From an uncultured Armatimonadetes bacterium (lineage in GTDB: Bacteria > Armatimonadota > UBA5829 > DTJY01): a DNA stretch of 64,000 nucleotides. The notes beneath the pieces are model-generated. The model was not told the DNA's origin, did not search any database, and saw only the letters and a program-made list of their open reading frames with translations. The translations under genes were made by a program, and so were the position numbers. The stretch covers positions 4,960,001 to 5,024,000 of the forward strand of contig OY970325.1 of the NCBI GenBank assembly GCA_963717145.1, read 5' to 3'. Of the stretch, positions 1 through 18,468 are shown piece after piece (within the stretch, counting starts at the first letter, position 1; the number at the start of each line of letters is the position of its first letter).

Positions 1-153
1 GCAGAATTCCTTCTCGATGAAGGAAACAGGTTTCGCAAGGGGGCGTCACTGTTGGGCACCTATGGGCTTCACATGGGCTATGTCTTCACCGGAATGACCC
101 TCCGCGCAGCTCATCTGCGGTCTATCTTGGCTCCGAATCGGCTGGAGATCTGA
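1..153 (+). CDS. 3' end of an upstream gene, truncated by the window edge (hypothetical)
   Basis: Frame 1 is open from base 1 (AEFLLDEGNRFRKG...APNRLEI) to TGA at 151-153, 10 nt before the ABC ATPase. Confidence 0.4.
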   Translation, partial: AEFLLDEGNRFRKGASLLGTYGLHMGYVFTGMTLRAAHLRSILAPNRLEI

Positions 154-163
154 TCTTAGCCAG

Positions 164-1255
164 GTGAGTTCTGGCCCAAGCCCGGGAAGGCGGAATCAGG
201 GACACGTGCAGTATAGCACTCAGGCTACGATCAACGCAGAGAAATCGGACGCAGTTGTACAAGTCTCGGGATTGTGCAAGAACCTCCCTAAACGGCGACC
301 AATGGTGGCGGCCATCCTTCATCCGTTCAGATGGCAGTGGCTGCCCGTACTTAGCGATATAGATCTTGAACTGCGCTGTGGGGAGATTCTGGGAGTCGTT
401 GGCCCGAATGGTGCAGGGAAAAGCACGCTCCTTCGCATCCTGTGCGGCCTCCTGCTGCCGGATTCCGGGAGTGTGCGCGTTTGCGGAGTTGATCTTGCGC
501 ACGAAGGACATGAGATCAAGCGTAAGGTTGGCTATGTCCCTGCTGATGAGAGGGGTCTCCTAGGGAGAATCTCCGGTTTTGAGAATCTAGAGTTCTTTGC
601 ACGACTGAATGATCTATCTGGCAAGGAATTGCAGTCGAGGGTGATGCGATCCTTGGAGCGGGTGGGGCTGGCTGAACAAGCTGACAAGCAGTTCATGAAC
701 TATTCCAGCGGCATGAAGCAAAGGTTGCTAATTGCTAGAGGTTTGCTGATCGCACCAGAAGTGCTGCTCCTTGATGAGCCGACCAGAAGCCTTGATCCAT
801 TTTCCGCCAGCACCGTGCGAGCACTGGTAAACGAGATACGATCATCTCAGAAGTGCAGCGTGATCATAGCGAGCCATAACCTGGTGGAGATCGAGGCGAT
901 ATGTGATCGTGTGGTTGTTCTGAGCGGCGGGCGTATACTGGTCTCGGGCACGATCGATGAAGTAGTGAACGTCTGCCCGGAATCCGATCAAGATTCATAT
1001 CAGATCGCTTTTCGCGGGTGCCCCAAGCGTCTCTTGGAACTAGCTGATGCGTTGGGTCTCTCGGGTCTTCAGATGTCCGTAGTAGCGGGCAACCAGATCT
1101 GTTTGAGGGTAAGGGCGGACTCAGGGAGATTAGTCGGCCAATTGATTGCAGATCTCCTTAAAGCCGGCTTTGAAGTAGATTCATTAGCCAAGAGTTTCTC
1201 CACTCTTGAAGACACATTCTTGAGGATTACCCGTGAGCTTTCGGATTCCCAATAG
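164..1255 (+). CDS. ABC-2 type exporter, ATP-binding subunit
   Basis: Walker A GPNGAGKST, signature YSSGMKQR, Walker B LLLDEP, H-loop SHN. Exact start uncertain. Confidence 0.93.
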   Translation: MSSGPSPGRRNQGHVQYSTQATINAEKSDAVVQVSGLCKNLPKRRPMVAAILHPFRWQWLPVLSDIDLELRCGEILGVVGPNGAGKSTLLRILCGLLLPDSGSVRVCGVDLAHEGHEIKRKVGYVPADERGLLGRISGFENLEFFARLNDLSGKELQSRVMRSLERVGLAEQADKQFMNYSSGMKQRLLIARGLLIAPEVLLLDEPTRSLDPFSASTVRALVNEIRSSQKCSVIIASHNLVEIEAICDRVVVLSGGRILVSGTIDEVVNVCPESDQDSYQIAFRGCPKRLLELADALGLSGLQMSVVAGNQICLRVRADSGRLVGQLIADLLKAGFEVDSLAKSFSTLEDTFLRITRELSDSQ

Positions 1256-2051
1256 GTTGTTTGCCTATCTTAAGCGCGAATTTGCCTTTGCCTGCAGCTA
1301 TCCGGCTGGTTTTGGAATAGACATCGTCGGCGCCTTCGGATCGGTGTTCTCATTCTACTTCTTGTCGCTGATCGTGGGTGGCAGCGCCGAAAAGTGGCTG
1401 GCAGCGTATGGAGGTGACTACTTCACTTTCGCGTTAATAGGTGTAGCCTTCTCGAAGTATCTGGATGTATCCCTCAACTCATTTAGGCTGATCATACGGC
1501 GCGAGCAATTCACTGGCTCGCTCGAATTGATCATGCAGAGCCCAATCAATACTTATGAAGTGATTGTCTACTCCTCAGTCTATCAGTTTGTGTGGGCAAC
1601 CCTTGTGGTCTTACTCTATCTGGCGATTGGGGCTTGGGTGTTTGGCGTCAGATTCGATCACGCAGACTTGCTATCTGTAAGCGTTCTGTTCTTGCTTATG
1701 CTTCTGTCGCTCTGCAGCCTGGGCATTATGTCCGCTGCCTTTACCCTCGTGATAAAGGAAACCGATCCCTTTACGTGGCTGGTCGGCACCGTGTCCACGG
1801 TGTTGGGAGGCGTGATCTATCCTATCAGCGTCTTGCCAGGGTTTCTGCGCTTGTTTGCCGAGTCATTGCCGTTTACTATAGCCCTGAGCGGGCTGCGCCG
1901 AGCCCTTCTGCAAGGGATGCCTATTCAGGCGCTGGGGAACGAGGTACTGGGTTTGGCGGTCTGGGCACTATTGCTCACTCCTCTGGGATTCCTGGCACTG
2001 CAGTACAGCCTGAGATTCGCCAGGAGACACGGTGTGCTGGCCCAGTACTGA
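1233..2051 (+). CDS. ABC-2 type exporter, permease
   Basis: About six hydrophobic segments with REQFTGSLE and GGVIYPISVLP motifs. Overlaps the ATPase gene. Confidence 0.9.
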   Translation: MSFRIPNRLFAYLKREFAFACSYPAGFGIDIVGAFGSVFSFYFLSLIVGGSAEKWLAAYGGDYFTFALIGVAFSKYLDVSLNSFRLIIRREQFTGSLELIMQSPINTYEVIVYSSVYQFVWATLVVLLYLAIGAWVFGVRFDHADLLSVSVLFLLMLLSLCSLGIMSAAFTLVIKETDPFTWLVGTVSTVLGGVIYPISVLPGFLRLFAESLPFTIALSGLRRALLQGMPIQALGNEVLGLAVWALLLTPLGFLALQYSLRFARRHGVLAQY

Positions 2052-2123
2052 ATTGCGATATCTGTGCTCTCGAGTTCACGCATACAGACCTAGTCCGCGG
2101 AGTTGGCTGCTGTCAAGGAAACC

Positions 2124-2909
2124 ATGGAACCGTTGTATTTTTGCAAGGAATCTAGAAGGCTCTTCGGCGTATACCATCCGCCGATCGCCAACCCGCCGCA
2201 CGAGATAGGTGTTATCCTATGTTATCCCATAGGATGGGAATATCTATCTGCTCACCATGCCTATGTCCGGCTGGCAAGTATGATCGCGTCCAGTGGGATA
2301 CCCACGCTCCGCTTTGACTACTTTGGTTGCGGGGATTCAGAAGGCGACAGCACGGAGGGCACAGCTAGTCAATGGATAGATGACATTTCTGCTGCCATCC
2401 GTGAACTCGAAGCCGGTACAGGTATAACGAGACTGTTCCTGATAGGCTGTCAGTTTGGAGCGACACTATCTCTCATGGCTGGCGCTCTGCAAGAGGACGT
2501 CAGCGGCGTTGTGCTCTGGGAACCGGTCGTCAACGGCCGTGCATACATCAGGCACTTGCATCGGCAGCAAGAGGACTGGCAACGAAGTTACATGTCACCC
2601 TCGTGTCGCCAGGAACAACTATCAGAGGTACTGGGATTTCCACTGGTAGAGACCTTAATGCAGGAGATAATGAATATTGATCTCACCACGTTTCGCGAAC
2701 CTCTGCTGCGCAACGCACTCATTCTCGAGAGTCGCAAGACTATTGCAGCCAGGAGGCTTACCGGGGTACTGCGAGCAGGCGGTACTCAGGTGAGCTATAA
2801 GCGTATACCCGAGATGAGAGAGTCAATAAGGCAGGACGGCACTCGGAGTTTCATGAATCCCCAAGTGTTCCAATGTATCCTGGACTGGCTACTGAAGGTA
2901 GGCTCATGA
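2124..2909 (+). CDS. alpha/beta hydrolase resembling exosortase A-associated hydrolase 2
   Basis: LRFDYFGCGDSEG and LVLWEPV-like motifs. The nucleophile elbow is GCQFG (no Ser). RBS aagga precedes ATG 2124. Confidence 0.75.
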   Translation: MEPLYFCKESRRLFGVYHPPIANPPHEIGVILCYPIGWEYLSAHHAYVRLASMIASSGIPTLRFDYFGCGDSEGDSTEGTASQWIDDISAAIRELEAGTGITRLFLIGCQFGATLSLMAGALQEDVSGVVLWEPVVNGRAYIRHLHRQQEDWQRSYMSPSCRQEQLSEVLGFPLVETLMQEIMNIDLTTFREPLLRNALILESRKTIAARRLTGVLRAGGTQVSYKRIPEMRESIRQDGTRSFMNPQVFQCILDWLLKVGS

Positions 2910-3781
2910 GAGAAAGGGCTGTGTGTTTCGGAGAGAGCCAGTCGTTGATCGGAATCCTTGCCGAACCCGCGTCGACCCAGTCCCCCCCAGATCTCCCCGG
3001 TATACTCTTTCTCAATGCTGGGTGGCTACACCGGGTTGGACCCAATCGTATATATGTTGGTATGGCAAGGAGTATGGCGGACTTGGGATTTGCCACCTTA
3101 AGGTTTGATCTCTCAGGGATAGGCGACAGCCGCAACCGCCATGATCATCTACAGTCTAAGCAATCTGCAACCAGTGATGTGCGTGACGCAATGGCATATT
3201 TGTCCTCGGCTCAGGGCGTAGAGCGGTTTATCCTTATCGGACATTGCTCAGGAGCGGATCTCGCACTAGACGTCGCCGTAACCGATGCAGCGGTTGTAGG
3301 CGCAGTGTTGATCAACGGTTTCTACTTCAGCGAGATGCCCGAGGAATCCACGCCAGCCATGTATGCACATTTCCTCGCAAGAAACATCGGAAGACATCTC
3401 CTCAACGTCCAGAGCTGGCGAAGGGTTCTCACACGGAGACACGATTTACGGAGGTTGTTGCTTGCCCTCCGTTACAGGCTCAGCAGAGGGAAGGGAAGAG
3501 ATGTTCCGGCTCACGGCGAGGTCGAACGGCGATCCGTATGGCAAACACTGACTGAGCGAGACACTGAGCTGCTTCTCGTGTACTCGGAAGGTAGCGCAGC
3601 CTACGATAGGTTCCGATTAGCATTCGAGGAGCATTGCAGGGCTTTGGAAGCATCTCGCAAGCTGCAGGTGGAAGTAATATTGCAGACGGACCACTTATTT
3701 ACGCCCATATCTCAGCAACAGTATCTAATGAAACTGGTCAGTCGATGGATTGGCGATGATACGAGGGGTTGGAGGCTATGA
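2906..3781 (+). CDS. alpha/beta hydrolase resembling exosortase A-associated hydrolase 1, with a Cys nucleophile
   Basis: HRVGPNR, LRFDLSGIGDS, elbow GHCSG and C-terminal DHLF His. ATGA overlap with the previous gene. Confidence 0.78.
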   Translation: MRERAVCFGESQSLIGILAEPASTQSPPDLPGILFLNAGWLHRVGPNRIYVGMARSMADLGFATLRFDLSGIGDSRNRHDHLQSKQSATSDVRDAMAYLSSAQGVERFILIGHCSGADLALDVAVTDAAVVGAVLINGFYFSEMPEESTPAMYAHFLARNIGRHLLNVQSWRRVLTRRHDLRRLLLALRYRLSRGKGRDVPAHGEVERRSVWQTLTERDTELLLVYSEGSAAYDRFRLAFEEHCRALEASRKLQVEVILQTDHLFTPISQQQYLMKLVSRWIGDDTRGWRL

Positions 3782-4039
3782 CAGATAGCACTCCGGCATT
3801 TCCAGTGTTCTCGTCAGCTATTGTGAATCCCTGGGGGCCATGGAGACTCATGGCAAGGTTCATCTCATGGAGCTTACCGATCACTGCAGGGCTCAACGGA
3901 CAATCTATCCTTGGACAGGCTACCTGGACACCCTGTGCAACCTGGGCGCTTGGGTGACACCGCCGAATATCTGCACAGTTTGATGACCCATCGATGGTAT
4001 AACTGCATTTGTTGTGCACTACGTATGGGGCGCTGAGGG

Positions 4040-4437
4040 CACTTCTTGGTCGGTTGGTCCAGCGGAGTAACCAGGAAGAGTGTCTGGCGGGCATGAAACG
4101 GATTTACAATCAGCCTAACCGGCAGGAAGCTGTTCGAGCATACCATGAGTGGGGGGCAAGATGGAGGGCGAAGGAACCACGCGGTAGAGTGTCTGGCAAA
4201 GGACCTGGAAGAACTGCTCACCTTCTACCAGATGCCGGAGCATCATTGGAAGAAGATTAGGATCACCAACCCCATCGGGGGATCATTCAGAGAAGTCCGG
4301 CGAAGGACTCGGCGGATGATCTGCTCTGCGAACAAGGCCAGCTGCGATCGGATCACCTTAACAGTGTTCGATTCCTTCAACGAGCAATAGGACTCACGCC
4401 CCATTCGCCGTTCTACAAAGAAGGATTTGACACTACC
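4040..4437 (+). mobile_element. IS256-family remnant: frameshifted transposase C-terminus plus right end
   Basis: Two frames join to give ...AVECLAKDLEELLTFY...IRITNPIGGSFREVRRRTR, a degenerate RTTNxxERxxREVRRR motif. Ends in ctacaaagaaggatttgacactacc (4413-4437), resembling IS256 termini. Confidence 0.8.
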
Positions 4438-4535
4438 AGCAAGAACAAGGCATTGACAGCCAAGGCAAAGCAGGTTAGTATGGAAGCGCGCCTTCAGCGA
4501 CTCTTCACTGGGGCAGGAAGCAGAGGGACAGTGAC

Positions 4536-5549
4536 GTGGCTGGTTTCTTCTTGGGACTAGATATCGGTGGAACGAACGTCCGGATCGCATCATATGACGT
4601 CTCCACGTTTCATGTGTTCACCACGGAACAGGATTCCTTCAAGAGAGTCGGTGATGCTAGGACCGAAGTCGATCATAATGTGTGCCGACCGGTAGAGAGG
4701 CTAGTTAGAGAGAAGTCCAAAAAGGGAGGAAGACTGGCAGGCATCGGGCTGTCACTGGCTGCGCTGTTTGACAGGATCAGTGGCGACATCACGATGTGGC
4801 CGAACAATGGGACCTGGAACGGGTTTCCACTGAAGAGGTACTTGACAGACAAGTTCAGAGTTCCGATTCTGCTGGAGGACGATGCAAATGCCGCTGCCGT
4901 CGGCGAGCACCAGATGGGGGCCGGCAGAGGACACCGCGACCTGGCATACATTACGATAAGCACCGGAATCGGCTGCGGACTGATACTCCGCGACTCGCTC
5001 TATATTGGCTCCAACGGCTGGGCAGGAGAGATCGGACATATCGGAGTTGCCGAGGATGGACAGGAATGTAGTTGTGGCATGAGAGGCTGTCTTCAGTCCA
5101 TAGCTTCTGCGCCTGCGATCGTGAGGACATTCAATGGACCGGGCAGGACAGACGGCCATGAGGGACCGGAGGCTCTAGACCTGAGAGATGTAGTCAGTGT
5201 GGCAGCGCATGGGAACGCAAAGGCTGTCGACGTTCTCTTGCAGGCCGGTGCCTATGTCGGCAAGATGATAGCTGGTCTCGTCATGACGCTGGATCTGTCC
5301 CTGATCATACTTGGGGGTGGCGCCACGGGCGCAGGTGATCTGCTATCGGAACCTGTCCGAGACAGCGTCCGTCGCTGCCTTGGGGTTCATCAGCGTGACG
5401 TCAAGATAGTACGCTGTCACCTGGGAGACAGCAGTGGGACGATCGGCGCGCTGAACCTTATTCACCAGTATGTCAACAACAAGGCAGTGCCCGTCTGGGG
5501 TGGAATCATCGGAGGGGGCGCATCAATTGCTGACCGTCGCTGTGATTAA
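4536..5549 (+). CDS. rifN: ROK-family sugar kinase, kanosamine kinase (RifN-like)
   Basis: GLDIGGT, EDDANAAA and GEIGH..CSCG..GCLQ motifs. Gln replaces the usual ROK Glu, and WP...W.G is present, as recalled for RifN. Lies next to rifK. Confidence 0.75.
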   Translation: MAGFFLGLDIGGTNVRIASYDVSTFHVFTTEQDSFKRVGDARTEVDHNVCRPVERLVREKSKKGGRLAGIGLSLAALFDRISGDITMWPNNGTWNGFPLKRYLTDKFRVPILLEDDANAAAVGEHQMGAGRGHRDLAYITISTGIGCGLILRDSLYIGSNGWAGEIGHIGVAEDGQECSCGMRGCLQSIASAPAIVRTFNGPGRTDGHEGPEALDLRDVVSVAAHGNAKAVDVLLQAGAYVGKMIAGLVMTLDLSLIILGGGATGAGDLLSEPVRDSVRRCLGVHQRDVKIVRCHLGDSSGTIGALNLIHQYVNNKAVPVWGGIIGGGASIADRRCD

Positions 5550-5985
5550 TGGTCCGAACCTCAAGTTGCTTGGCATAAGAGAGCCACAGATATACGGTCA
5601 CGAGCGGTGGAGCGATATCGAGAACCGACTGGAAACAGAGGCAGGGGAGATGGGAGTCAAGTTGCTGTTTTTTCAGTCCAATTACGAAGGTGCCATTGTC
5701 GAGTTCATCCAGGGCAATCTCTTCACCATGGATGGCGTAGTGATAAACCCTGCAGCTTACACCAAGACGGGATACGCGATCCTGGATGCGCTAACCTCTG
5801 TCGATCTACCATTTGTGGAAGTTCATCTTTCGAACATCCTCGCGAGAGGCGGCTGGCATTCGGAATCGGTATTCTCCGCCAATGCTGTTGGTCAGATCAT
5901 GGGATTTGGAGGGTATGTCTACTCCCTGGGTGTTAGAGCGGTGAGAAATCACCTTGATGGAATGGAGAAAAGAAAACATGAATGA
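5527..5985 (+). CDS. rifJ: type II dehydroquinase, probable aminodehydroquinate dehydratase (RifJ-like)
   Basis: NGPNL..LG.REP.IYG, NPAAY and EVHLSN motifs. TTG start at 5527 follows RBS ggagggg. Cluster context. Confidence 0.75.
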   Translation: MLTVAVINGPNLKLLGIREPQIYGHERWSDIENRLETEAGEMGVKLLFFQSNYEGAIVEFIQGNLFTMDGVVINPAAYTKTGYAILDALTSVDLPFVEVHLSNILARGGWHSESVFSANAVGQIMGFGGYVYSLGVRAVRNHLDGMEKRKHE

Positions 5986-7195
5986 GTTGGCGATATCCGG
6001 CGGCAGGCCCCATAAAAGCAAGCCCTTTCCTCAATGGCCTATGCACGATGAGAGAGAGCTTGAGCTGGTTCAAGAGGTTGTAACCAGTGGGCAATGGTGG
6101 AGGATGAGCGGCAGCAGAGTGGACGCGTTTGAAAGCCAGTTTGCGGCCTTCCAAGGCGCGAGATACTGCCTTGGCGTAACCAATGGAACGCAGGCCATCG
6201 AGCTTGCGTTGTATGCTTTGGGGATAGGTGCGGGCGACCAGGTCATCGTACCGGCCTTTACCTTCATCTCGACTGGCTCAGCAGTGGCATGGTGCAACGC
6301 CACACCAGTTCTGGTTGATGTCGATCCGCGAACATTCTGCATGAAGCCCGAAGCCTTCGAAGAGGCCATCACTCCAAGAACCCAGGCCGTTATTCCGGTG
6401 CATATGGCCGGACATTCATGCGATATGGACGCTATCTGTGAGATCGCTCGCAGAGCTGGCATAAAGGTGATAGAGGACGCAGCACACGCTCACGGGGCAG
6501 AATGGAAGAACCGAAGGCTGGGCACGTTTGGGGACATATCGATCTTCAGCTTCCAAAACGGCAAGCTCATGACCTGTGGAGAGGGCGGAGCTATCCTAAC
6601 CAATGATGAGGATCTCTACGAAACCGTCTATCTTGCGCATGGGGTAGGGAGGCCAAAACAGGATAGAGTCTACGCCCATGTCATACTCGGGTCTAACTGC
6701 CGCATGAATGAGTTCCAGGCGGCTGTTCTCATCGCGCAGCTGGAACGACTCGACGGTCTGAACCGAAGAAGAGAAGAGAACGCTCGTGTGCTCGATGAGC
6801 TATTCGCTGGGATCCCTGGAACACGGCCCCAAGGAAGAAGTGCCGACGTCACCTTGCATTCGCATTACATGTACATGTTTCGATATGATGCTAACCACTT
6901 TGGTGGCCTGCCAAGACAGGACTTTGTTGATTGTCTGATAGCAGAGGGAATACCCGCCTTCATCGCGTACCCCGTTCTCTCTGATACGGTATGTTTCAGA
7001 GAGAACAGGTTCGGTGGACGTATCTCGGATTATTGTAGCGAGAATGAATCTGATCTGTCCAATGCAAGAAGCATAGCAGCCGACACTGTCTGGCTCCCCC
7101 ATTTAACTCTACTAGGCGACAGGCAGGATCTGGAAGAGATTGGAGGTGCGGTGCAGAAGATTCAGCATGCCTCGTCCGGATTCAGCAGAGCCTAA
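5978..7195 (+). CDS. rifK: 3-amino-5-hydroxybenzoate (AHBA) synthase, PLP-dependent DegT family
   Basis: RifK-type motifs FP.WP, GQWWRM, VPAFTFIS, DAAHAHGA, FSFQNGKLMT.GEGG (PLP Lys), GRP..DR.Y.H and SHYM.MFR. Confidence 0.85.
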   Translation: MNELAISGGRPHKSKPFPQWPMHDERELELVQEVVTSGQWWRMSGSRVDAFESQFAAFQGARYCLGVTNGTQAIELALYALGIGAGDQVIVPAFTFISTGSAVAWCNATPVLVDVDPRTFCMKPEAFEEAITPRTQAVIPVHMAGHSCDMDAICEIARRAGIKVIEDAAHAHGAEWKNRRLGTFGDISIFSFQNGKLMTCGEGGAILTNDEDLYETVYLAHGVGRPKQDRVYAHVILGSNCRMNEFQAAVLIAQLERLDGLNRRREENARVLDELFAGIPGTRPQGRSADVTLHSHYMYMFRYDANHFGGLPRQDFVDCLIAEGIPAFIAYPVLSDTVCFRENRFGGRISDYCSENESDLSNARSIAADTVWLPHLTLLGDRQDLEEIGGAVQKIQHASSGFSRA

Positions 7196-7213
7196 ACCAA
7201 AAGGAAGGTAGTA

Positions 7214-7885
7214 TTGTTGAACAACTGTGTGATCTGCGACTTCGATGGGGTCATCATAAAGTCATCTCATATCCAGAAGTGGGCGCTACAGGAGAGTTAC
7301 CGCCTAGTTGTTGGCAGAGGCAGTCCATCCGTTGACGAGTTCTTCAGCCATAGCGGCGATAGTTTGGAGAACATCTTCGCCAAAATGGGGTTTCCCTCAG
7401 AGATGGTGGAGATCTATAGAAGAATCAGCTGGGAGAGAATGGGTGAGATCATTGTCTACGATGGGATGAGGGAGCTGCTCGCAAAGCTAAATGCGGTCGG
7501 TTACAGATGTGCGCTATGCACGGGCAAGGAGCGCCGTCGAACTATGGAGATGCTCAGGAAGTTCTCTCTCGACCAGTACTTTGATGCAGTCGTCTGTTCG
7601 GACGATGTGGAACACCCCAAGCCGGCGCCAGATAGCTTGCTTCTGGCCATGACAAGGATAGGCGCGAGGATTGAGGACTCTGTCATGGTGGGTGACGCCA
7701 GGAATGATATCCTCTGCGCAAGGAACGCAGGAATGACGATAATCGCAGTAACTTGGGGAGACGCTCCTAGGGAGGTCATTGAGCAGTCGCTTCCAGATTA
7801 TATAGTCGACAATGTGGATCAGCTCTGGGTGACCATTACCAGTCACCCTGTACCGATCAAGGCATCGGTTCGCACAGCCTCGTGA
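7214..7885 (+). CDS. rifM: HAD phosphatase (RifM-like)
   Basis: DFDGV, TGK, KPAPD and MVGDARND HAD motifs. RBS aaggaagg. Directly follows rifK. Confidence 0.78.
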   Translation: MLNNCVICDFDGVIIKSSHIQKWALQESYRLVVGRGSPSVDEFFSHSGDSLENIFAKMGFPSEMVEIYRRISWERMGEIIVYDGMRELLAKLNAVGYRCALCTGKERRRTMEMLRKFSLDQYFDAVVCSDDVEHPKPAPDSLLLAMTRIGARIEDSVMVGDARNDILCARNAGMTIIAVTWGDAPREVIEQSLPDYIVDNVDQLWVTITSHPVPIKASVRTAS

Positions 7886-8441
7886 ATGCGCTGCTGAGAT
7901 GATCGGCGGCTATATCTTGGAGCGTTTCTGATCTGGAGGACAAGAAGGATGATGCTGTTGTGGACACGATGAGAGTGCTTCTGCAGGAACACGCGGCATC
8001 CCTGGTGTCTGTCCCGTCTCCGCGGGAACAGCACCCAGATCACTGTGCGACATTTCAGATGTTCATGGATGGAATCGCCAGGGCATACATGCTCAAGGAT
8101 CCTCGAGAACTAGCGTGTGCTTTTCAGCGTATCGACCGGTTGCATCACCGACTGCTGGAACGAGAAAGCCGGACTATTGGCACTGTATGAGAGTGAGGCA
8201 GATTGCAGGATTCTGAGCTTAGCTTCGCTAAGCAACAGGTTGGGTGCCGTGCGGACAGGTATGACTGACCCATCGTATGCTGAACCGTTCCGTGTCGTCC
8301 AAGGCGGATTGCTGGCATGAACTCACTGGTGTGTCTATGCCAGAGCTCCCTGAGTCCAATCGGTAGATAAGTAGAGCAGTTCCAGGGCGTGCGGTGTGGT
8401 CCCAGGCGAAAATGACCGGCATGGTATCGTTGGGGGTAGTG

Positions 8442-8699
8442 ATGGTTGACAGAAGGCGTATACAAGGCATTGTCCTGGAAACCCTGAAAGATCATCTGCC
8501 TGCGAAAGGCGTTGCTGTGGACGTTGACGTAGACTTGGGACCACTTGGCCAAGGCATGAATTCGGTGAATCATCTCGAACTCCTCATTGCTCTGGAAACG
8601 CGATTCGAGGTGTGCATCCAGGACGATTGTTGGGACAGTAAGTCACTGAACACGGTCACAAAGATCGTGGACTACTTCTGCAATGCATTGAATCAATGA
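8442..8699 (+). CDS. stand-alone acyl/aryl carrier protein
   Basis: 85-aa protein with GMNSVNHLELLIALETRFEV (phosphopantetheine Ser, NS variant) and TVTKIVDY. Confidence 0.85.
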   Translation: MVDRRRIQGIVLETLKDHLPAKGVAVDVDVDLGPLGQGMNSVNHLELLIALETRFEVCIQDDCWDSKSLNTVTKIVDYFCNALNQ

Positions 8700-9072
8700 A
8701 TACTGAATGGGTTAGGGGTAGTATTGCAGTCAGGTACACGTGGCTAGCTGTTGAGTGATGATAACTCGCACCAAGATGGCTGGCTTCTGCATGTCCTTAG
8801 TTCATGTGCAAACGAGAAAGCGGCCGATCGATAGACTTTGTTGGGATTGGTGAGAGGTCCCACAAGAAATGAATGAACTTCCGTGAGTAAACATCACCCG
8901 ATTCTTTGGAGACTGGTAGCACTGTGTCAGCAACCAGGCTGCCTGCAAACGGCCAGGTGATCCTGACGATGATCACGATCACCAACGGTTTCAGACATGA
9001 CGAGTGCGATGGCAAGCAGACCAGAGACATTGGCAGGGACTTGGTGCGAGGTGTAGGAAATCGGAGTGGCTA

Positions 9073-10506
9073 GTGGACCTATGGGACTACATCGAGTCGA
9101 ATGCAGTTTGTGACCCGGATGGCGTTTCGCTCAGGGACGACCAGAGCATCATGACGCATAGGCAATTGTATGCATGTCTGCCATACTATCAAGCGCTGCT
9201 TGAGAAAGCTGGCTACCAACCTGGGGATAGAGTGGTACTAACAACATGCGGTCAGCGAGATTCGGTCATAGCTTTCCTCAGTCTTCTGTCGGTAGGCTGT
9301 TGGGTGATACCCGTTCCCCCGAGCATTACTGATTTCGAGCTGAAGCGACTCATTGATCATACTGGGGCCAAGGTCTATGACAGTGGCCGGCTCGAACCGC
9401 CTGGTGTAGGAGCGCAAGGAAGGAAGCGTCTTTCCAGGCCAAGAGCAGAAAATACTGGTATATATCATCTAAGCTCAGGCTCTCTCGGGAAACCTAAGCT
9501 ATGTATCCGAACACTCAATGCGCTGCTTAAGGAAGGCCTGAGTTACTCTGACACCTTCAATATCTCCGGACGGGATAGAATACTAAGTGTTTCGCCACTG
9601 CATCACTCTTTCGCCATGGGGGCCTGTCTTTGTGCCTCCATCGTAACGGGCGCATGCTTGTACGTGATGGACCGCTTTGTCCCAAGGAGAGTCCTGCAGG
9701 TGGCTCGAGATGCCGAGATCTCCATCCTTGTCATGGTACCCATTATGGCCAGGGCACTCTGCGATGTCTACTCTGATGCAGAGGTTGGTCTGCCCTCTGC
9801 ACGGGTTGTTCTTGTAGGGGCAGGCGCGATAACCACCGACTTGCACAACGCCTTCAAGCGCCGGTATGGCATTTCGCTGTTGAGCAACTACGGAAGTACA
9901 GAAACTGGGGGAGTCATCTCGCGAACGGAGCCGACTCCGCATACGTCAATCGGAAAGCCCATGAAGGGCGTAAGCGTTAAGCTGTGCGATGAGTGTGGCA
10001 GGCGCGTTGCAGTAGGTTTGGAGGGCGAGATACGACTAAAGTGTGAAAGCATGCTGTCTGGGTATTATGGAGACGATGCCTTGCCATTTGATGCCGAGGG
10101 CTATTTCCCGACGGGAGACATAGCCGTAGAGGACGGAGCTGGCAATCTGTTTCTGCGATACCGAAAGGCACGATTGATTAACCTGGGCGGCAGAAAGATC
10201 AATCCGCATGAAGTCGAAGAAGCAATATTGGGCTTTCCAGGTATCGAAGACTGCGTTGTCTTTGGTATGGGTGCTGAACAGGAGCAGAAGAGGGTCGCGG
10301 CTGTCGTTGTCGGCAAGAACGTAGAGGAACCCCCATTGAGGGAGCATCTCGCAATGAGGCTAGATAACTACAAAATCCCAGCTGTAATAATGTTCCACCA
10401 AGAGATCCCCAGGACTGAGTTGGGCAAAGTTCGGATGGATGCAATCCTGAACAGTGTACCTTCACAGAACAATGGATCCGCAACACTCGGACGACATAAG
10501 GCTTGA
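9073..10506 (+). CDS. ANL-superfamily adenylating enzyme (acyl-AMP / acyl-ACP ligase)
   Basis: SSGSLGKPK P-loop, YGSTE, TGD, GGRKINP and PRTELGK motifs. GTG 9073 follows ggag. Confidence 0.88.
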   Translation: MDLWDYIESNAVCDPDGVSLRDDQSIMTHRQLYACLPYYQALLEKAGYQPGDRVVLTTCGQRDSVIAFLSLLSVGCWVIPVPPSITDFELKRLIDHTGAKVYDSGRLEPPGVGAQGRKRLSRPRAENTGIYHLSSGSLGKPKLCIRTLNALLKEGLSYSDTFNISGRDRILSVSPLHHSFAMGACLCASIVTGACLYVMDRFVPRRVLQVARDAEISILVMVPIMARALCDVYSDAEVGLPSARVVLVGAGAITTDLHNAFKRRYGISLLSNYGSTETGGVISRTEPTPHTSIGKPMKGVSVKLCDECGRRVAVGLEGEIRLKCESMLSGYYGDDALPFDAEGYFPTGDIAVEDGAGNLFLRYRKARLINLGGRKINPHEVEEAILGFPGIEDCVVFGMGAEQEQKRVAAVVVGKNVEEPPLREHLAMRLDNYKIPAVIMFHQEIPRTELGKVRMDAILNSVPSQNNGSATLGRHKA

Positions 10507-10657
10507 AGAGGAAGCGCTATCAGGTTGCCATTCCCTAGACACTCTACCGGACTACTGCCTTCTAGGCACAAGTGGTTGTTCTCAGAAGAAGAGAGGGGAG
10601 AGACCACGGAAATGTTCACTAGCTGAGTAATGTGAAGACCCAGCTAAAGCGGGTGAG

Positions 10658-11463
10658 GTGGTGCTGAACGCCACGATCGACAAGTACGTCACCGGCAAGA
10701 TGGAGGTCTTCGACGGCACGTCGTCGAATGACAGTCCCGAAGGCGTCACCGCGTCGTATCATCCGACCTTCCTTCGGGTCGGGGCTGGGCACATCTTCCT
10801 CGCTCATCATCAAGTTGCATATCTCCTCTCCGGAGGACCGAATGATCATAGAAAACCTGGCCTACGACCTGGAGACGATTTTCGGGATACCAGGAGGCAA
10901 GCGAGTTCAGTATGCCCGGGCCATAGGTGGGTTCAACTATATGACGTTCGGCGAAAGAATCGAGGTCGTTCGGACAGAAATCGTTCCGGAGACTGTTGCA
11001 GAGATGGAAGACCAGCTTGCCCTCGTCTCCACTGGCAAGCCGAGGCTCTCGGGTAGTATCCACGTGCATGTATGGGGAGCGTATCATGCGGGTGTACCGG
11101 GCATAGTCAAAGGGCTTTACAGCCTCAGAAACGTCGCCATCCGGATGAGGACAACGATCGAGAACGGCACCTGGACGTGTTTGCCGAGTTGTTGAACCAG
11201 AACCGGAGGCATCAGAAGCGGCTCGACGCGGCCAATGCCAATGAGCAGGCCGAAGACCTGTCGCACAGGCATTCAAGCATGACGTTATCCTCGGAAAGGC
11301 CTGTACCACAGGAGGAGGTTGTGTGCTCTTCTTTGTGAAGGCAGATAGTCGTATGGACGTAGAGCAAATAGCGGAGCAACTCGGCAGCCGGGTCATCCCG
11401 TTTGGGCTTGGGTTGGATGGTATCCACGTGTAGCCCGGTTTCAGCGTACCCATGCGGCAATAG
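10658..11463 (+). pseudogene. fragmented GHMP kinase (HddA-like sugar-phosphate kinase)
   Basis: Pieces in different frames: VLNATIDKYV, GSGLGTSSS, GGK..QYA..IGGFN, TGKPRLSG and GGGCVLF. The N-terminus is missing. Confidence 0.7.
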
Positions 11464-11656
11464 GAGCTCTCGGGACACAAACATGCACGACATGTCTGTC
11501 TCCGGTTGCTGAAGATGCTCGTTGCTTACGTGCTGGGTATGGTGGCCCTCACTCTAAGAGTGCATCGGGATCTATGTTGTCCAATCGCCAAAGCCGGGGA
11601 GCCAGTAATCAACCACTAAGTCGGCTGCTATCCCAACATCCGATCCGGATGCCCTC

Positions 11657-14600
11657 TCATTCTCCCGCCTTCCACTTTTCATACACTCTGCGGGACTCGT
11701 GCCAGTCGCCGTCGTGGAAGCGGATGAAGACGGGCGCGGCCACGTAGTCCTTGCCGACCGCGCCGCCTAAGCAGTCAACGAACGAAAGCTCGACGCCCAC
11801 CGGCATGCCCTTGAGTTCGTCCTGCCGGGGCCAGTTGCCGTCCTCGCGCGCAGTGCCCGACCCGCTCGGAACGAGTTCCATGCGCACGACGTTCTTGCGG
11901 TCTAAGGGGTCGCGTGCGCCGACGTAGACGGACCGGCCGAGCTTGCCTGACTGGAACGCTATCCACGGCTCCGGCTGGGCGTCCGGATACGCATAGAACT
12001 GCTCCGGCCCCTGATCGCCGAACGACGACATATTGCCGAACGTGCGGAAGATGTCCGAGGTCGCAGCCGACCCGCCTACGGACGGCCTTACGAATTCGGT
12101 GGACTTGAGTTGCCCGCGTGTCGTGCCGAGGCCCTGGATGCCGCCGATCATGGGGAAGTAGGTCTCGCCGACCTGGTAGGTCGTCCGGTTGTCGATCTCG
12201 AGGCTGAGAAGCGCGCCGCCGTCCATCAGCTCGATGGTCTCGGTGACGGAGGCGTCGTACTTCTCGCCCAGGTAGTTGGTCAGCGGACCGTTCCATCGCA
12301 GGGTCAGCTTCGTTCCCTGAAGATCGAGCGACGAGAGCTTCTGCTGACGGCCGATGATCCAGTTGGCCTCGATCGTCTGCCACGGCTCCTTGCCCGGCAG
12401 CGGCAGCGCGAACTTCCAGCTTCCGGCCAGGCGCGGCTCGAGGATCAGTTCCAGTCCGGTCTTCTTGTCCTGGATTCGGGTGAGCGACCCGTTTGCGCGG
12501 CTGACCTCAACCAGGAGATTCTCGTCCTCCAGCTTGACCGATCGCTTCGGGTCGAACGCGGGAAGTCTGGGCGCGGGCGTGGCGTAGTCCGCGGGCAGGT
12601 CGGCAGTGCGAACGTCGTCGATGCAGAGCATCGAGAACGTGGGTTGGTCGGCGTCGTCCACCGCCTGCACGTAGACCATCTTGCCCTTGTGCTTCGAGCC
12701 ATCCAGGAATGCCGGAGACGAATGCCGTCGTGTTGGGCGCGTAGATGCGGTCGATCTCCGTGCCGTCCGCGAGGTTCAGCGTCACGTAGTTCCACTTGCG
12801 CGGGCTGCCGGTGCCGCGCACCGAGTTCCAGCCCGAGATGAGGAGGCGCACGCCGTCCTTGTCGAGCACGAACGGCTTCGACGTGAGCTTGCCCATCGCG
12901 GCCTCGCCCGTGCCGCCGCTCCAGGCCCAGTACTTGCCCTGCCAGCCGGAGTAGTAGACGCGGGAGTCGTTGGCGACCACCCAGTTCGGGTCGGCCGTCC
13001 AGCCCTCGAAAGCCGCCGGACTCGAAGTCGCCGTTCGGGATGCTCGACCCACGGTCCGATGGTTCGATGGTCCGAGGGCTTGACGGCGCGCTCTGTGCGG
13101 TGATCTTCGTCTCCTGTGCCAACTCCTCGACGAACACGATCCGCTCGGCGGGAACGTCGATCGCGGCCGGGCAGGTTCACCTCGAAGCTCTTGCGGCCCG
13201 GCACGTGCACGCGCGCTCCGCCGCCGGGCTTGGCGAACCCCTCGATGATCTGCTCTTGCGGCGTCCATGCTGCTGTTGGTGAGGATGCAGACGCGGTGGC
13301 CGGTGTTGCGGTTGCGGAAGACGTTGTACTCGACGCCCTGCGGAAGCTGCCCGCCGATCATGACTCCATCCCGGCCGAGCGCCTCGCCGAAGAAGACGGT
13401 CTCCTGCAAGCTGTCCCGGATGCGCTTGACCTCGCGGATGTAGTCGCGAGGCCGGCGAACGGCGCCCAGTCCAGGCCACGGCGAAAAGTTCATCGGCGCG
13501 AGCATCACATCGTGGCCGTCGCGCACCGCGTTGTTGACGCCGAGGTAGTCGTAGGCATTGGTGATCGCCAGGGTCTCGGCGTTCTCCGGGAAGACCGTCC
13601 GCGTGACGAGCTGGTTGCCGACCCACCACGTGCATCCGCCGAACTGCAGCATGCGGTCCCAGTTGCACTCGAAGGACATCGCCCAGTCCGGGTTGAGCTT
13701 GCCGGCACGCCGCGATGATCTCCTTGCGAGAGCAGGATCGCGCCCTCCCAGGTGGAGGTGTCCGGGCTCATCGGGATGTCCGGGTTGTAGTCGATGGCGG
13801 CGGGGAACATCTTGTCCACGTGCACGCCGTCCGCGCCGATCTGCGGCCAGCTTCGCGAACTGGTCCACGATGATCTTGCGGAACTGCGGGAACGCCAGGT
13901 CGGCCCAGGTCATCAGCTTTGGATGACCCATCCTGGCCCAGAGCGTGCCCATGCCCCAGCCGGCGTTCCAGGTGAGGCCGCCGTCCGGCGTTCCACTCGC
14001 GGTACTTGTGCAGCTCCGTTCTTGTACCAGTCGGACTCGACCATCATCGGCTGGTAGTTGACGAAGAAGAAGACCTTGAGGCCCATCTTGTGGCAGGCGC
14101 GGATGCCGTCTTCGAGTTCCTTCCACGTGCCCAGGCGCGGGTCGGGCATGTAGTAGGGGTAGCCGTTGTCGTGGCCGCCAACCTGCCAGCCGCTGATCTG
14201 AACGGCGTTGACCCCATGGTCCTTGGCCGCCTTGGCCCAGCGTGGGATGTCCTTGAACGTGTAGTTGATCGTGCCTTCGGGGAGCATGAACATGGTCATG
14301 AGGAAGAACGACTGCCTGCGGATCCAGTCGGTCCTGGGGTCGGCCAGCCCGAATGCGTTGGTGAAGCAATCGCGGTAGACCTTTCCCGCCGCGCGCCAGT
14401 CGCCCTCGACGAATCGCAGCACGACCGGAGACCCGCTGAAGCTCTCTGCCCGGCGGTGTGAGCGGGACGTGGTGGATGCAGGCGAAGACATCCTCGCCAT
14501 CTTTGCCCGGCACACCCATGAGGTGATACACCTTGTACCGCGCGATCTCGTCCTCCGACGCGAAGTAGATCGCCCTGCCCGCGGACTTGCTCCCAACGCA

Positions 14601-15182
14601 CACGAATGACATGTTCATATGCCCAGGGTAGCCGAACGCATTCGCGCCGAACGGCGACTCGAGCGGCTTCTGCCATGGGTTGGACGTTGGGACCCAGGCG
14701 GAGGCGTCCGCGCCGAGCTTCTGGAGCCCGCCGATGAGCGGGTACCACGCTTCCTGGAGCTTGTACTCGGCGCCGTTGTCGAGATCCAGCGTGAACTCCA
14801 GCCTGCCACCGGAGACCCGTATTCCCATCCGGACATCGATCTTGTGCTCGTCTCCCTTGGTGTCCTTGAGGGGACCGTCCCATCGCAGCCGCATCACGCC
14901 GGGCTCAGTCGCGGAGTCCGAGAGCGTCTGGTCCTTGCCCAAAATCGTGACGGTGGTCTTGTCAGGCTTCACCAGCACAAGCCGGAAGTTCTCGGCCGGC
15001 GCGTGATCCGGCGCGAGCGTGGCGCCGGAGGGCCTGTCCACGATGCGCGTGATCGCCCCGTTATCCGGCGAAACCTCCACCAGGACGCGGCTGTCCTCCA
15101 CAACGAGCGGTGCGGAGTTGCATGCTCCTGTCACTAGCACGATCAGAACGATTGCGGCACAAAGCCTTGCGGGGAATCTCAT
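11657..15182 (-). CDS. secreted multidomain glycoside-hydrolase-like protein (DUF6259-like), interrupted by several frameshifts
   Basis: Signal peptide at ATG 15182. Coherent protein text passes between frames (ISGWQVGGHDNGYPYY.PDPRLG, HVDKMF, NGDFE...LTSKPF), followed by a 340-aa C-terminal ORF. Confidence 0.65.
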
Positions 15183-15192
15183 CGGCTCTCTC

Positions 15193-16407
15193 CTATCCAT
15201 TCGGGTTGACAGTCTTCGGCACGTCGGGATGGTTCGGGCCGAAGTGCTTGAGCATGACCAGCGGCTCGAAGCGGCTGTGATTGGTTATCCTCACCCCGGC
15301 CTTCGCTGAAGGTTCGCCCACGAAGAACTCGTCCTGCGAGAGCTGGCCATAGCGCAGCATTATCGCGGCCTCCGCGTCGTGGACGCCGAGCGTGCCGTGT
15401 CCCTGCAGCAGGATACAGCCGTATGCCGCTCCGTCCTTGATCGTCACCGTTTGTCCCGGGTTCACCGTAAGCTCCTTCGCGGCGATGTAGTCGTTTGCGT
15501 AGGCAATCCACTTCTCGGTATAGGCCGCGTCCGAGTGAATGAGCACCGGCGGACGGAAGTAGGTTCTCTTGAAATGCGAGTCGATGTTGCGCTCCCAGTC
15601 CATCAGACCGAGGATGTAATCCACATCGCGCATTCTGTCCTCCGGGCAGTTCTCAGCCAGGAACTCGTATGGATAGACCTCTCCGCCCGCGATGTTCTCA
15701 TAGACGGAGTTCACATCGCTGTTCCACTGCGGCTCGTAGGTCAGCACCGATCCGGGCGAATGGAGTACGCCAGGCGGGACATACCATCCGGTGCCGAGCA
15801 CTATCCGGTACGCCCGCGAAAGCTCGGTGATGCGGTTGTCCGCGTCCTCGTACTGCAGCAGCCTCTCGCGGACCTCGTCGATGGTGACGTCCGGGTCGAA
15901 GCCGAAATAAGTGGCCGGAAACTCGCCCATGTAGTTGTTGAGCTGAGGGGGGAAGTAGTAAGCCTCGGGCTTGCCGAGCCTGCCCACCCGGCCCGCGGAG
16001 TCGAAGTCCAGGTGCAGATGGTGAAAGAGCGGCTTCGAGTAATCGAAGAACTTCGAGTACATCGGCCAGCCGCCGTACTCGCTCATCAGCTTCTCGCCGA
16101 CGATATCCCTGCCCAGGTGGTCGATCGCCTCTTTGAGCGTGAACTTGTCCCTGAGATCGTCCGTGGGGACGACGTAGCTCATCCCCTCGTCCTCAGGCGC
16201 GAGTGGGCCGTTCATCGCAGGGATCACCGAGGCAAACCATCGCTCCTTGATGGCTCCGCGAGCCGTGCCGAGCGCGAAGTAGTCGTCCGGGTGCAGCCGC
16301 AGTCGGCACCCGGGCGAGCTGAACCGTCGCGGTACGAAGACCGGGGAGAGCCGGAGTATGCCCTTCCCCTGATCGAAAGCCCTCTCTATCTCATTGCGAG
16401 TTGCCAT
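15193..16407 (-). CDS. cupin protein, mannose-6-phosphate isomerase-like
   Basis: KFFD...LFHHLH, KPEAYYF and PPGVLHSPG..TYEPQ motifs. RBS gaggagg precedes ATG 16407. Confidence 0.75.
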   Translation of the reverse strand: MATRNEIERAFDQGKGILRLSPVFVPRRFSSPGCRLRLHPDDYFALGTARGAIKERWFASVIPAMNGPLAPEDEGMSYVVPTDDLRDKFTLKEAIDHLGRDIVGEKLMSEYGGWPMYSKFFDYSKPLFHHLHLDFDSAGRVGRLGKPEAYYFPPQLNNYMGEFPATYFGFDPDVTIDEVRERLLQYEDADNRITELSRAYRIVLGTGWYVPPGVLHSPGSVLTYEPQWNSDVNSVYENIAGGEVYPYEFLAENCPEDRMRDVDYILGLMDWERNIDSHFKRTYFRPPVLIHSDAAYTEKWIAYANDYIAAKELTVNPGQTVTIKDGAAYGCILLQGHGTLGVHDAEAAIMLRYGQLSQDEFFVGEPSAKAGVRITNHSRFEPLVMLKHFGPNHPDVPKTVNPNG

Positions 16408-16440
16408 CCGGACCTCCTCAGGGCCAACGCATCTGATAAC

Positions 16441-16607
16441 ACGATGCTTCGGTAGCAGAGGCCTGGCGGCGCTGCCGAAGCACACGGTCACCACGCCATG
16501 CTTCGGCTGCGCCGCCAGGCCTCTGCTACCGAAGCATCGTGGTGAAACGCACGGTCACCATGCCATGCCTCGGCAGCGCCGCCAGGCCTCTGCTACCGAA
16601 GCATCGT
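16441..16607. repeat. three copies of a 42-bp palindromic unit, one inverted (BIME/REP-like)
   Basis: 16441-16482 is the reverse complement of 16499-16540 and 16566-16607, with one mismatch each. 16483-16540 and 16550-16607 form a 58-bp direct repeat. Confidence 0.9.
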
Positions 16608-16632
16608 ACGCGGTTATTTCGAGCAGAAAGCG

Positions 16633-16702
16633 CCGATCTCCAGACGACTCCGTCGTCGTCCGCAGCCGGCCGCCGCCGCCGACGGAGTCGTCTGGAGATC
16701 GG
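16633..16702. repeat. perfect 23-bp inverted repeat (REP-like)
   Basis: ccgatctccagacgactccgtcg (16633-16655) pairs with cgacggagtcgtctggagatcgg (16680-16702). Confidence 0.9.
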
Positions 16703-16734
16703 GCTTCCGTCCCCTTGTTCTTGCCCGAAGACAT

Positions 16735-17484: not shown

Positions 17485-17485
17485 A

Positions 17486-18454: not shown

Positions 18455-18468
18455 TGGTTCACCATGCC

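Follow-up and report, generated by a model that had tools for sequence, protein, structure and literature searches.

A RifK-type aminoshikimate cassette beside a hydrolase pair and an exporter in an uncultured Armatimonadetes bacterium: a possible mosaic of two carrier-protein-dependent modules

The first 10,506 nucleotides of a 64,000-nucleotide stretch of DNA from an uncultured Armatimonadetes bacterium (GenBank assembly GCA_963717145.1, contig OY970325.1) carry genes of the type that make 3-amino-5-hydroxybenzoate (AHBA), next to an ATP-binding cassette (ABC) exporter and two alpha/beta-fold proteins, here called hyd2 and hyd1. The genome is a single contig of 5.37 Mb; the whole stretch, genome 4960001-5024000, is referred to as the window, and coordinates are those of the window unless the genome is named. 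We read the 10 kb stretch, at roughly even confidence, as a mosaic: the seam of two carrier-protein-dependent modules in an acquired island rich in insertion sequences (IS). Module A consists of a family 2 glycosyltransferase (GT2), a 4'-phosphopantetheinyl transferase (PPTase), an ABC-2 exporter, hyd2 and hyd1; module B consists of a ROK kinase, a 3-dehydroquinate dehydratase (AroQ), a RifK-like aminotransferase, a HAD phosphatase, an acyl carrier protein (ACP) and an ANL ligase. Their pairing may be a by-product of mobile-element rearrangement.

Two gene sets that meet at a transposase remnant

The comparison covered 82 loci around RifK homologues and 80 loci around hyd1 homologues (L162-L241). 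None of the former has a hyd1 or hyd2 homologue, and none of the latter has a homologue of RifK, ROK or AroQ, one of them having a weak HAD match. The locus is unique among the 162 loci compared, as the original prediction, made from the DNA letters alone, had suspected when it did not recognise the combination. That prediction proposed a hybrid system; both gene sets are indeed present, but they meet at a remnant of an IS256 transposase gene. This scar at the joint, together with the genes that are missing from the AHBA pathway, lowers the odds of a purpose-built system. The genes were identified by Pfam and NCBIfam profile matches, and all are on the plus strand:

1..150, plus strand: 3' end of the gene of an EntD/Sfp-type PPTase (motifs in the translation)
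164..1255, plus strand: ABC transporter ATPase, DrrA-like (PF00005, 8e-32; TIGR01188, 210 bits, under the cut-off of 312)
1233..2051, plus strand: ABC-2 type permease, overlapping the ATPase gene (PF01061, 3.5e-12)
2103..2909, plus strand: hyd2, alpha/beta-fold protein without a nucleophile (TIGR03101, 99.1 bits, under the cut-off of 202.75)
2873..3781, plus strand: hyd1, Cys-nucleophile alpha/beta hydrolase or acyltransferase (TIGR03100, 105.4 bits, under the cut-off of 168.45)
4009..4390, plus strand: IS256/Mutator-family transposase, frameshifted 3' remnant (PF00872, two frames)
4536..5549, plus strand: ROK-family sugar kinase, RifN-like by position (PF00480, 2.4e-60)
5470..5985 (homology from about 5536), plus strand: type II 3-dehydroquinate dehydratase, RifJ-like by position (PF01220, 4.9e-48)
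5954..7195, plus strand: RifK-like DegT-family aminotransferase, dependent on pyridoxal phosphate (PLP), AHBA-synthase clade (339 bits to 1B9H)
7214..7885, plus strand: HAD phosphatase, RifM-like (best family TIGR01454, 156.6 bits, under the cut-off of 246.65)
8442..8699 (open reading frame alternatively from 8394), plus strand: free ACP of 85 aa, divergent 'NS' type with Ser in GMNSV (PDB and profile matches)
9004..10506 (homology from 9079), plus strand: stand-alone ANL adenylating ligase (PF00501, 5.2e-46)

All the gene types named in the original prediction are present and co-oriented. Its ACP is real, as PDB and profile matches attest, but its gene list omitted the PPTase gene and the IS256 remnant. 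The open frame of the PPTase begins about 570-690 bp upstream of the window (aligned stretch, genome 4959431-4960150), and its translation carries GSISH, GIGLDAE and FSAKECTYK, which we take to be the motifs of this family. TIGR01454, the best family of the HAD phosphatase, is named 'AHBA synthesis associated protein'. Farther along the window, a TolC-like outer-membrane factor gene (48123-49295, two OEP repeats in a 544-aa frame) is consistent with the diderm host that had been proposed.

Module B resembles Bacillota-type aminoshikimate cassettes

The aminotransferase groups with RifK, as had been proposed, and not with the sugar DegT enzymes or NtdA. It scores 339 bits against the AHBA synthase 1B9H, versus 247 bits for the next family, the 2-deoxy-scyllo-inosose aminotransferases, and 137 bits for NtdA; its SFQNGK lysine motif aligns with that of 1B9H. 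In a tree of 96 rows, built by a quick method with SH-aLRT support, it falls inside a clade of 82 rows (support 100), 43 of them from actinomycetes, and there in an inner clade of 14 rows (99), 12 of which are Bacillota. Its closest neighbours in the tree are L086 (72%), L087 and Paenibacillus macquariensis, the five DegT paralogues of the same genome lie outside the AHBA-synthase clade, and identity to the copies on Streptomyces plasmids is 46-47%. Judged by its sequence, the protein is a relative of the rifamycin-type genes from a Bacillota-centred sister clade. A metagenome scan with it gave a best match of 59%; the contigs of its 70-73% homologues P0002-P0005 were not returned. A second DegT gene (genome 3404206-3405405), 45% identical to the RifK-like protein (363 bits), branches just outside the AHBA-synthase clade, and none of the cassette genes is found near it.

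The other three cassette proteins were compared with the best copies in this genome and with the cassette copies in other loci. The ROK kinase shares 52-58% identity with its cassette counterparts in L003 and L086-L088, versus 34% for its best paralogue here; the dehydroquinase is 59-64% identical to cassette copies, versus 41% for the housekeeping copy at genome 999933; and the HAD phosphatase is 54-58% identical to cassette copies, versus 28% for its best paralogue in this genome. The rifN-J-K-M-like order picked out by the original prediction is that of a conserved cassette, the sequence ROK-AroQ-RifK-HAD recurring in L003-L005 and L086-L088. In L086 the genes run polyketide synthase (PKS; AT-KS-KR-ACP), free ACP, ANL, ROK, AroQ, RifK, HAD and GT2, and continue with a class I 3-deoxy-D-arabino-heptulosonate 7-phosphate (DAHP) synthase, BtrH_N, a thioesterase and, farther on, a nonribosomal peptide synthetase (NRPS). 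Given that a PKS or NRPS stands beside cassettes of the L086 type, the cassette in these relatives would supply starter units to assembly lines. On the mosaic reading, module B (4536-10506) would be a Bacillota-type aminoshikimate starter-unit cassette in truncated form.

Outside the actinomycetes, RifK-type cassettes (L003-L005, L026, L086-L117) form a clade with two architectures. The first stands beside a PKS or NRPS (L003, L086). The second (L004, L005, L090, L092, L095, L099, L100) runs CysD/CysN-like, phosphodiesterase, ANL, methyltransferase, RifL, ROK, AroQ and RifK, followed by PIG-L, a HAD-radical SAM fusion and B12-radical SAM; this presumably recalls the aminocyclitol genes of the pactamycin type. 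L005 carries a Caulobacteraceae label as a metagenome-assembled genome, has 38.5% GC and has its genes among Clostridia in the tree, and it may be misbinned.

The open reading frame of the ACP has no match to the Pfam PP-binding domain. All 41 of its PDB matches at E<=10 are carrier proteins, and in the alignment the GMNSV serine coincides with the serine that bears phosphopantetheine. An exhaustive phmmer search with the ACP found only 25 relatives at E<=0.001; a profile of 12 small ACP relatives matches ACPs down to 3e-11, and NCBIfam ACP families match all 12 of its members. There are also weak matches to the DltC family. ACPs of the NS type occur in 14 of the 82 RifK loci, and in L086 the free ACP directly upstream of the ANL gene matches the profile at E 1.6e-10. 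A single-sequence AlphaFold model of the ACP (mean pLDDT 58.8) had implausible strands and was not used.

For the ANL ligase, the best PDB match reaches only 119 bits. About 31 relatives score 285-509 bits, after which there is a drop to 216 bits, and at least 13 of them were judged, by equal size of the longest contig, to share a contig with RifK-clade matches. The closest relative of the ACP (P0208, 46%) and one relative of the ligase (P0127, 53%) likewise both have a longest contig of 38717 bp. The ligase is 46-48% identical to those of L086-L088, and 10 of the 82 RifK loci have ligases at least 35% identical to it (35-48%); when it served as the single query of a locus scan, only relatives at 23-28% came up. 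Going by these identities and contigs, the ligase is one of a small subfamily that travels with the AHBA cassette.

By gene content, the ACP-ligase pair resembles that of mitomycin biosynthesis, which uses the MitE ligase, the MmcB ACP and the MitB glycosyltransferase according to PMC8621148 and PMC8788734. There as here, a stand-alone ANL ligase and an ACP accompany AHBA genes, glycosyltransferase (GT) genes lie nearby and the aryl unit would not be extended by a PKS, so that the pair may be regarded as an analogue of MmcB and MitE. The window differs in its divergent NS-type ACP and in its neighbours, which are the hyd pair and the ABC-2 exporter rather than mitosane tailoring enzymes.

Pathway genes missing from module B

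In the rifamycin system, as set out in PMC8788734, the aminoshikimate genes are those of RifG, H, J, K, L, M and N: RifL, RifK, RifM and RifN lead to the nitrogen-carrying precursor and RifH, RifG, RifJ and RifK to the ring, with nitrogen entry and the aminoDAHP steps assigned to RifL and RifH. The window likewise holds the RifK, RifJ, RifN and RifM types in one co-oriented block, but it lacks RifL, a class II DAHP synthase, a second dehydroquinate (DHQ) synthase, a PKS and an amide synthase. The notion that the AHBA genes here amount to a full supply is weakened by the absence of RifL, RifH and RifG equivalents.

Searches by tblastn with four RifL-like queries found no RifL in the island; the best match in the genome (34%, at 4443673) is distant. 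RifL lies directly upstream of ROK in 18 of the 19 non-actinomycete loci with ROK, AroQ and RifK, the exception being L086, and in this genome that position is occupied by the IS256 remnant. No rifL remnants were found in the gap at 3782-4536. The genome has no PF01474 match, that is, no class II DAHP synthase of the RifH type. Its single DHQ synthase gene is distant (4.366 Mb), so that a dedicated RifG equivalent is missing, and each of its four class I DAHP synthase-family genes (PF00793) lies at a distance of over 300 kb; such a gene is part of the cluster in 6 of the 82 RifK loci. Since RifL, the aminoDAHP synthase and the aminoDHQ synthase are missing, de novo synthesis of AHBA would need unlinked substitute genes, and it is doubtful unless distant housekeeping genes take their place. 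The absence of a PKS holds genome-wide: the only ketosynthase in the genome is FabF, so there is no modular PKS upstream.

PctV of the pactamycin pathway is a homologue of RifK, and in the same pathway PtmS is a ligase and PtmO a hydrolase. If the RifK-like enzyme had a PctV-like activity, the lack of RifL, RifH and RifG would be of no consequence: it would turn 3-dehydroshikimate, made by AroQ from primary dehydroquinate, into 3-aminobenzoate, which the ANL ligase would load onto the ACP. PctV itself depends on PLP and forms 3-aminobenzoate out of 3-dehydroshikimate (Hirayama 2013, as cited in PMC12836137), the pactamycin acid is carried and glycosylated on the ACP PtmI (PMC9092360), and the window retains exactly AroQ, the aminotransferase, the ACP and the ligase. 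The set of PctV/PtmT, PtmI (ACP), PtmJ (GT) and PtmO, as given in PMC9092360 and PMC12836137, resembles the window in its RifK-like enzyme, free ACP, GT and, presumably, carrier-bound intermediates, although the window lacks a ketosynthase and has a kinase and a phosphatase of the kanosamine route. A ligase and a hydrolase belong to both combinations as well. The kinase and phosphatase genes speak against a PctV-like route, in which they and RifL (present in 18 of 19 relatives) would have no role; DHQ synthase or class I DAHP synthase genes in several relatives also point to the full aminoshikimate route, and the aminotransferase tree contains no PctV row. We consider this explanation very unlikely.

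Module B could also be dead or an orphan, severed from its PKS or NRPS and from rifL by IS activity, with only module A and an NRPS still functional. The missing rifL, DAHP synthase and DHQ synthase partners would fit such a relic, as would a genome without a PKS and an IS256 scar that lies directly upstream of ROK, just where RifL sits in 18 of 19 relatives. Two non-coding gaps, 557 bp before the ACP gene (7886-8441) and about 380 bp before the ligase gene (8700-9078), are unusually long. However, the six genes of module B are full length, free of frameshifts and stops, and their catalytic motifs are intact (the ANL core, the RifK lysine, the HAD DxD and the ROK zinc motif, names that we take as current); furthermore, the island retains more genes of the RifK-cluster type elsewhere. 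On balance we regard a relic as unlikely.

Within the first of these gaps, an open reading frame at 7960-8190 was tried as a PIG-L remnant and rejected (Pfam E 0.02 only; tblastn with two PIG-L proteins was empty there); it is not an ACP either. A hairpin with a T-tract lies at 7890-7910, directly after the HAD stop codon, and a TTGACA-17-TAGTAT match lies at 4453-4481. Both are leads only, and the scan for promoters and terminators was not above shuffled sequence (10 versus a mean of 9.0; 6 versus 8.8).

Module A and its NRPS neighbour

The hyd1 family has 478 relatives at E<=1e-10, and the hyd2/hyd1 pair matched 561 stretches in a species-level genome collection. Across an alignment of 20 family members, Cys125 (of GxCSG) and His274 never vary and Glu239 hardly does, which as a pattern of residues is the signature of a Cys hydrolase or transferase that forms an acyl-enzyme. 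The nucleophile elbow of hyd2 reads GCQFG, with Gln at the nucleophile position, where relatives have Arg; hyd2 is probably a non-catalytic partner. Of the predicted pair of Cys-nucleophile hydrolases, then, hyd1 stands (GxCSG in 20 of 20 members) and hyd2 does not.

That the two form a conserved pair in glycan contexts agrees with the earlier proposal. In 78 of the 80 loci hyd1 has a hyd2 homologue next to it, mostly about 1 kb upstream, and in relatives from the phylum the two are fused as proteins of about 620 aa, which argues for their pairing. The fused genes stand in loci of the exopolysaccharide type, with Wzz/tyrosine-kinase, Acyl_transf_3, DUF1839 and GH2-like genes. The best families of the pair, TIGR03100 and TIGR03101 ('hydrolase 1/2, exosortase A system-associated', hypothetical equivalogs), are likewise adjacent genes in glycan contexts. 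The window pair differs from them in scoring under the cut-offs, in having no exosortase/PEP-CTERM locus and in the usual neighbour of its family, which is an NRPS of condensation, adenylation and peptidyl carrier domains (C-A-PCP). This genome has a single PF09721 match, an exosortase gene at genome 4788648, which lies 171 kb away from where the window begins.

The original prediction had taken the hydrolases, a free ACP and an acyl-CoA ligase as the usual set; instead, a one-module NRPS is the neighbour in 59-62 of the 80 loci. An adenylation-domain match lies near hyd1 in 59 of them, and in all four hyd1 loci scanned this domain is part of a C-A-PCP protein, of about 1060-1100 aa in L165, L185 and L198 and, in L162, of 1515 aa with a GT4 fused to the N-terminus. 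Near the C-A-PCP gene, the scanned loci have a gene for a PPTase or for a polysaccharide deacetylase. Over 221 aa, the PPTase of the window and the one that adjoins hyd2/hyd1 in L165 are 45% identical, and PPTase homologues lie near hyd2/hyd1 in 4 of the 80 loci. Homologues of the ABC ATPase (27-42%) occur in 10 of the 80, with 39-42% in L162, L183, L187 and L190, and those of the ABC-2 permease (27-37%) in 5. This NRPS-linked hyd2/hyd1 set spans Chloroflexota, Acidobacteriota, Planctomycetota, Gemmatimonadota and others, and to our knowledge no function has been assigned to it by experiment.

In this genome the C-A-PCP gene is not beside hyd2-hyd1, although the PPTase gene is adjacent. The island encodes a C-A-PCP NRPS at genome 4921100-4924249 on the plus strand, 37 kb upstream, which holds the single condensation domain of the genome. 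It matches 62 of the 80 hyd1 loci, with top matches of 32-36% identity over the full length (540-593 bits), versus 350-457 bits for the NRPSs of RifK loci. Given the NRPS neighbour in hyd1 loci, the canonical acyl donor of the hyd pair is most likely an NRPS-bound group, and the island NRPS is its most likely donor in this genome.

The island and its mobile elements

The 10 kb stretch forms the right end of an island of about 72 kb (genome 4,900,001 to about 4,972,000), with 52-58% GC versus 60.6% for the genome. Homologues of hyd1 were found in none of 10 genomes of the same family, the best match in the phylum being 32% identical, and a search of 400 other genomes of the phylum turned up no member of the ligase subfamily (best match 169 bits). 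This absence from relatives, together with the low GC and the load of IS elements, indicates that the island was acquired horizontally.

Upstream of the stretch, on the same strand, lie three GT9 genes, an FkbM methyltransferase gene, PD40, LCP (LytR_cpsA_psr), a gene for a 621-aa protein and the GT2 gene; IS66, UPF0236-type and rve transposase genes are farther upstream. The three tandem GT9 (heptosyltransferase-family) genes, at genome 4947780-4951800, are mutually 96-97% identical, which looks like a recent triplication. The island also has a minus-strand block (BtrH_N-like, GT2, two B12-radical SAM, AP_endonuc_2 and DegT) and a plus-strand block in which ACP, o371, ACP, o563 and the NRPS follow one another. 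The latter is operon-like (genome 4916985-4924249) and comprises an NS-type ACP, a 371-aa protein that is weakly BtrH_N-like, a second ACP, a 563-aa protein that is 46-57% identical to open reading frames in RifK loci, and the NRPS. A 639-aa gene after the NRPS is 42% identical to the gene upstream of the GT4-C-A-PCP gene of L162. A PDB sequence search with three open reading frames upstream of the NRPS gave no matches; two of them are IS genes.

The IS256 remnant between hyd1 and ROK corresponds to PF00872 positions 263-305 (E 0.018) and 307-374 of 379 (E 2.9e-9). Copies of other elements lie in the island at genome 4915474, 4946245, 4910255-4911542, 4913923, 4929453 and 4940899-4946056; the UPF0236-type transposase has 11 identical copies in the genome, and the IS66-type open reading frame about 40 copies at 56-100% identity. 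At the right edge of the island (window 10507-12700) are minus-strand open reading frames (10746-11480 and 11657-12679) with no Pfam match, GC climbs from 0.56 to 0.66 near window 12000, and no tRNA genes were found in window 1-20000.

How the two modules may relate

Several observations weigh against the mosaic reading. The full-length genes and intact motifs of module B argue against simple decay, and in L086, too, no RifL is found within 10 kb. Both modules would share the PPTase and the only stand-alone ANL ligase of the island as resources. Genes of the RifK-cluster type are dispersed through the island, namely a GT2 47% identical to that of L088, the B12-radical SAM and BtrH_N-like genes, the NS-type ACPs and the o563 homologue, so that module B may be one piece of a bigger system still in operation. 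Nowhere else in the genome does the DNA of 3782-4536 recur; without a second copy of the IS256 remnant, the scar may predate acquisition. Finally, modules A and B, the NRPS and the glycan genes are alike in GC (52-54.5%), versus 35-39% for the Bacillota relatives and 48-69% for the hydrolase sets. This uniformity fits long co-residence of both modules in one donor, possibly as a functional unit, and is the best argument against the pairing as a recent accident.

A rival explanation is a purpose-built hybrid, as the original prediction proposed, in which an AHBA-type acid, activated by the ligase and held on the PPTase-primed ACP, would pass to the Cys of hyd1, or first to the condensation domain of the NRPS, and from there to a glycan; the detour through the NRPS is our own variant. 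Each chemical step, in the mosaic reading as in the hybrid, we infer from gene identities, clades, neighbourhoods, motifs, absences and the IS scar, all of which were observed. The PPTase would prime the ACP, and the ligase would activate AHBA, or a meta-aminobenzoate close to it, as the adenylate and transfer it to the ACP, by analogy with MitE and MmcB. The hyd2/hyd1 heterodimer would be a pseudo-enzyme joined to a Cys-His-Glu acyltransferase, whose Cys would take the carrier-bound thioester acyl group to a sugar or glycan acceptor, and the acylated product would then be exported by the ABC-2 pump. The island NRPS would remain the normal acyl donor of the pair. The acceptor glycan might be built by the adjacent GT9, GT2 and LCP genes and leave through the ABC-2 exporter, amounting to a Dlt-like aryl decoration; the route through the NRPS might be an aryl-initiation, analogous to FAAL (fatty acyl-AMP ligase) with an ACP and a starter condensation domain in lipopeptides.

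The genes are co-oriented and contiguous, with motifs intact and GC uniform across both modules, as a hybrid would have them. Module A lacks an adjacent NRPS and module B an adjacent PKS or NRPS, each missing what the other offers; the C-A-PCP protein begins with a condensation domain, which needs an acyl donor, and the island counts one stand-alone ligase and three free ACPs. Glycosylated, ACP-tethered AHBA or 3-aminobenzoate intermediates are described for mitomycin and pactamycin (PMC8621148; PMC9092360), and lipo-initiation for lipopeptides (PMC9113097) offers a precedent for the NRPS route. On the other side, the two sets share a locus nowhere else in the comparison (0 of 82 and 0 of 80), they are joined at the IS256 scar, the NRPS lies at a distance of 37 kb, beyond several IS elements, and the functions of rifL, rifH and rifG are missing. 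Moreover, canonical module A loci run without RifK-type genes, so their normal donor is something else. The hybrid, in its direct form or through the NRPS, seems to us a tentative proposal, well short of even confidence.

In Dlt D-alanylation, the DltA ligase loads the DltC carrier, and D-alanine is transferred to an exported wall polymer. The window would share with it an ANL ligase that loads a small free carrier and an acyl group that ends on an exported glycopolymer, with LCP and ABC-2 genes adjacent; the acyl group would here be aromatic, however, and its transfer would rely on enzymes that are unrelated. Homologues of DltB and DltD did not turn up, although no search was aimed at them.

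Within the mosaic reading, the question is whether aryl-ACP from module B feeds module A, either directly to hyd1 or through the condensation domain of the NRPS. We think this somewhat improbable, yet a serious prospect; alternatively, module B may serve other island genes of the RifK-cluster type, or may be an orphan. A complete working system, in which AHBA or 3-aminobenzoate on the free carrier is transferred by the hyd pair to a surface glycan or glycoconjugate, possibly after condensation with an amino acid by the NRPS, appears rather unlikely.

Implications

Two results hold regardless of how the modules relate. There is a large clade of RifK-type genes outside the actinomycetes, in Bacillota, Bacteroidota, Acidobacteriota and Chloroflexota, for which our literature searches found no title or abstract describing it, and the real neighbour of the hydrolase pair is a one-module NRPS. 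Both widespread gene sets, the RifK-type clade and the NRPS-linked hyd pair, are apparently undescribed.

If the modules cooperate, AHBA-type units would be used outside polyketide and mitosane antibiotics, decorating an exported glycan, and the hyd2/hyd1 pair, which matched 561 stretches and has no experimentally based name, would gain a testable function. A working aryl-glycan system, if true, would parallel D-alanylation with an aromatic group, in a diderm whose phylum has been little studied, and would provide the first functional assignment for the widespread hyd2/hyd1 set.

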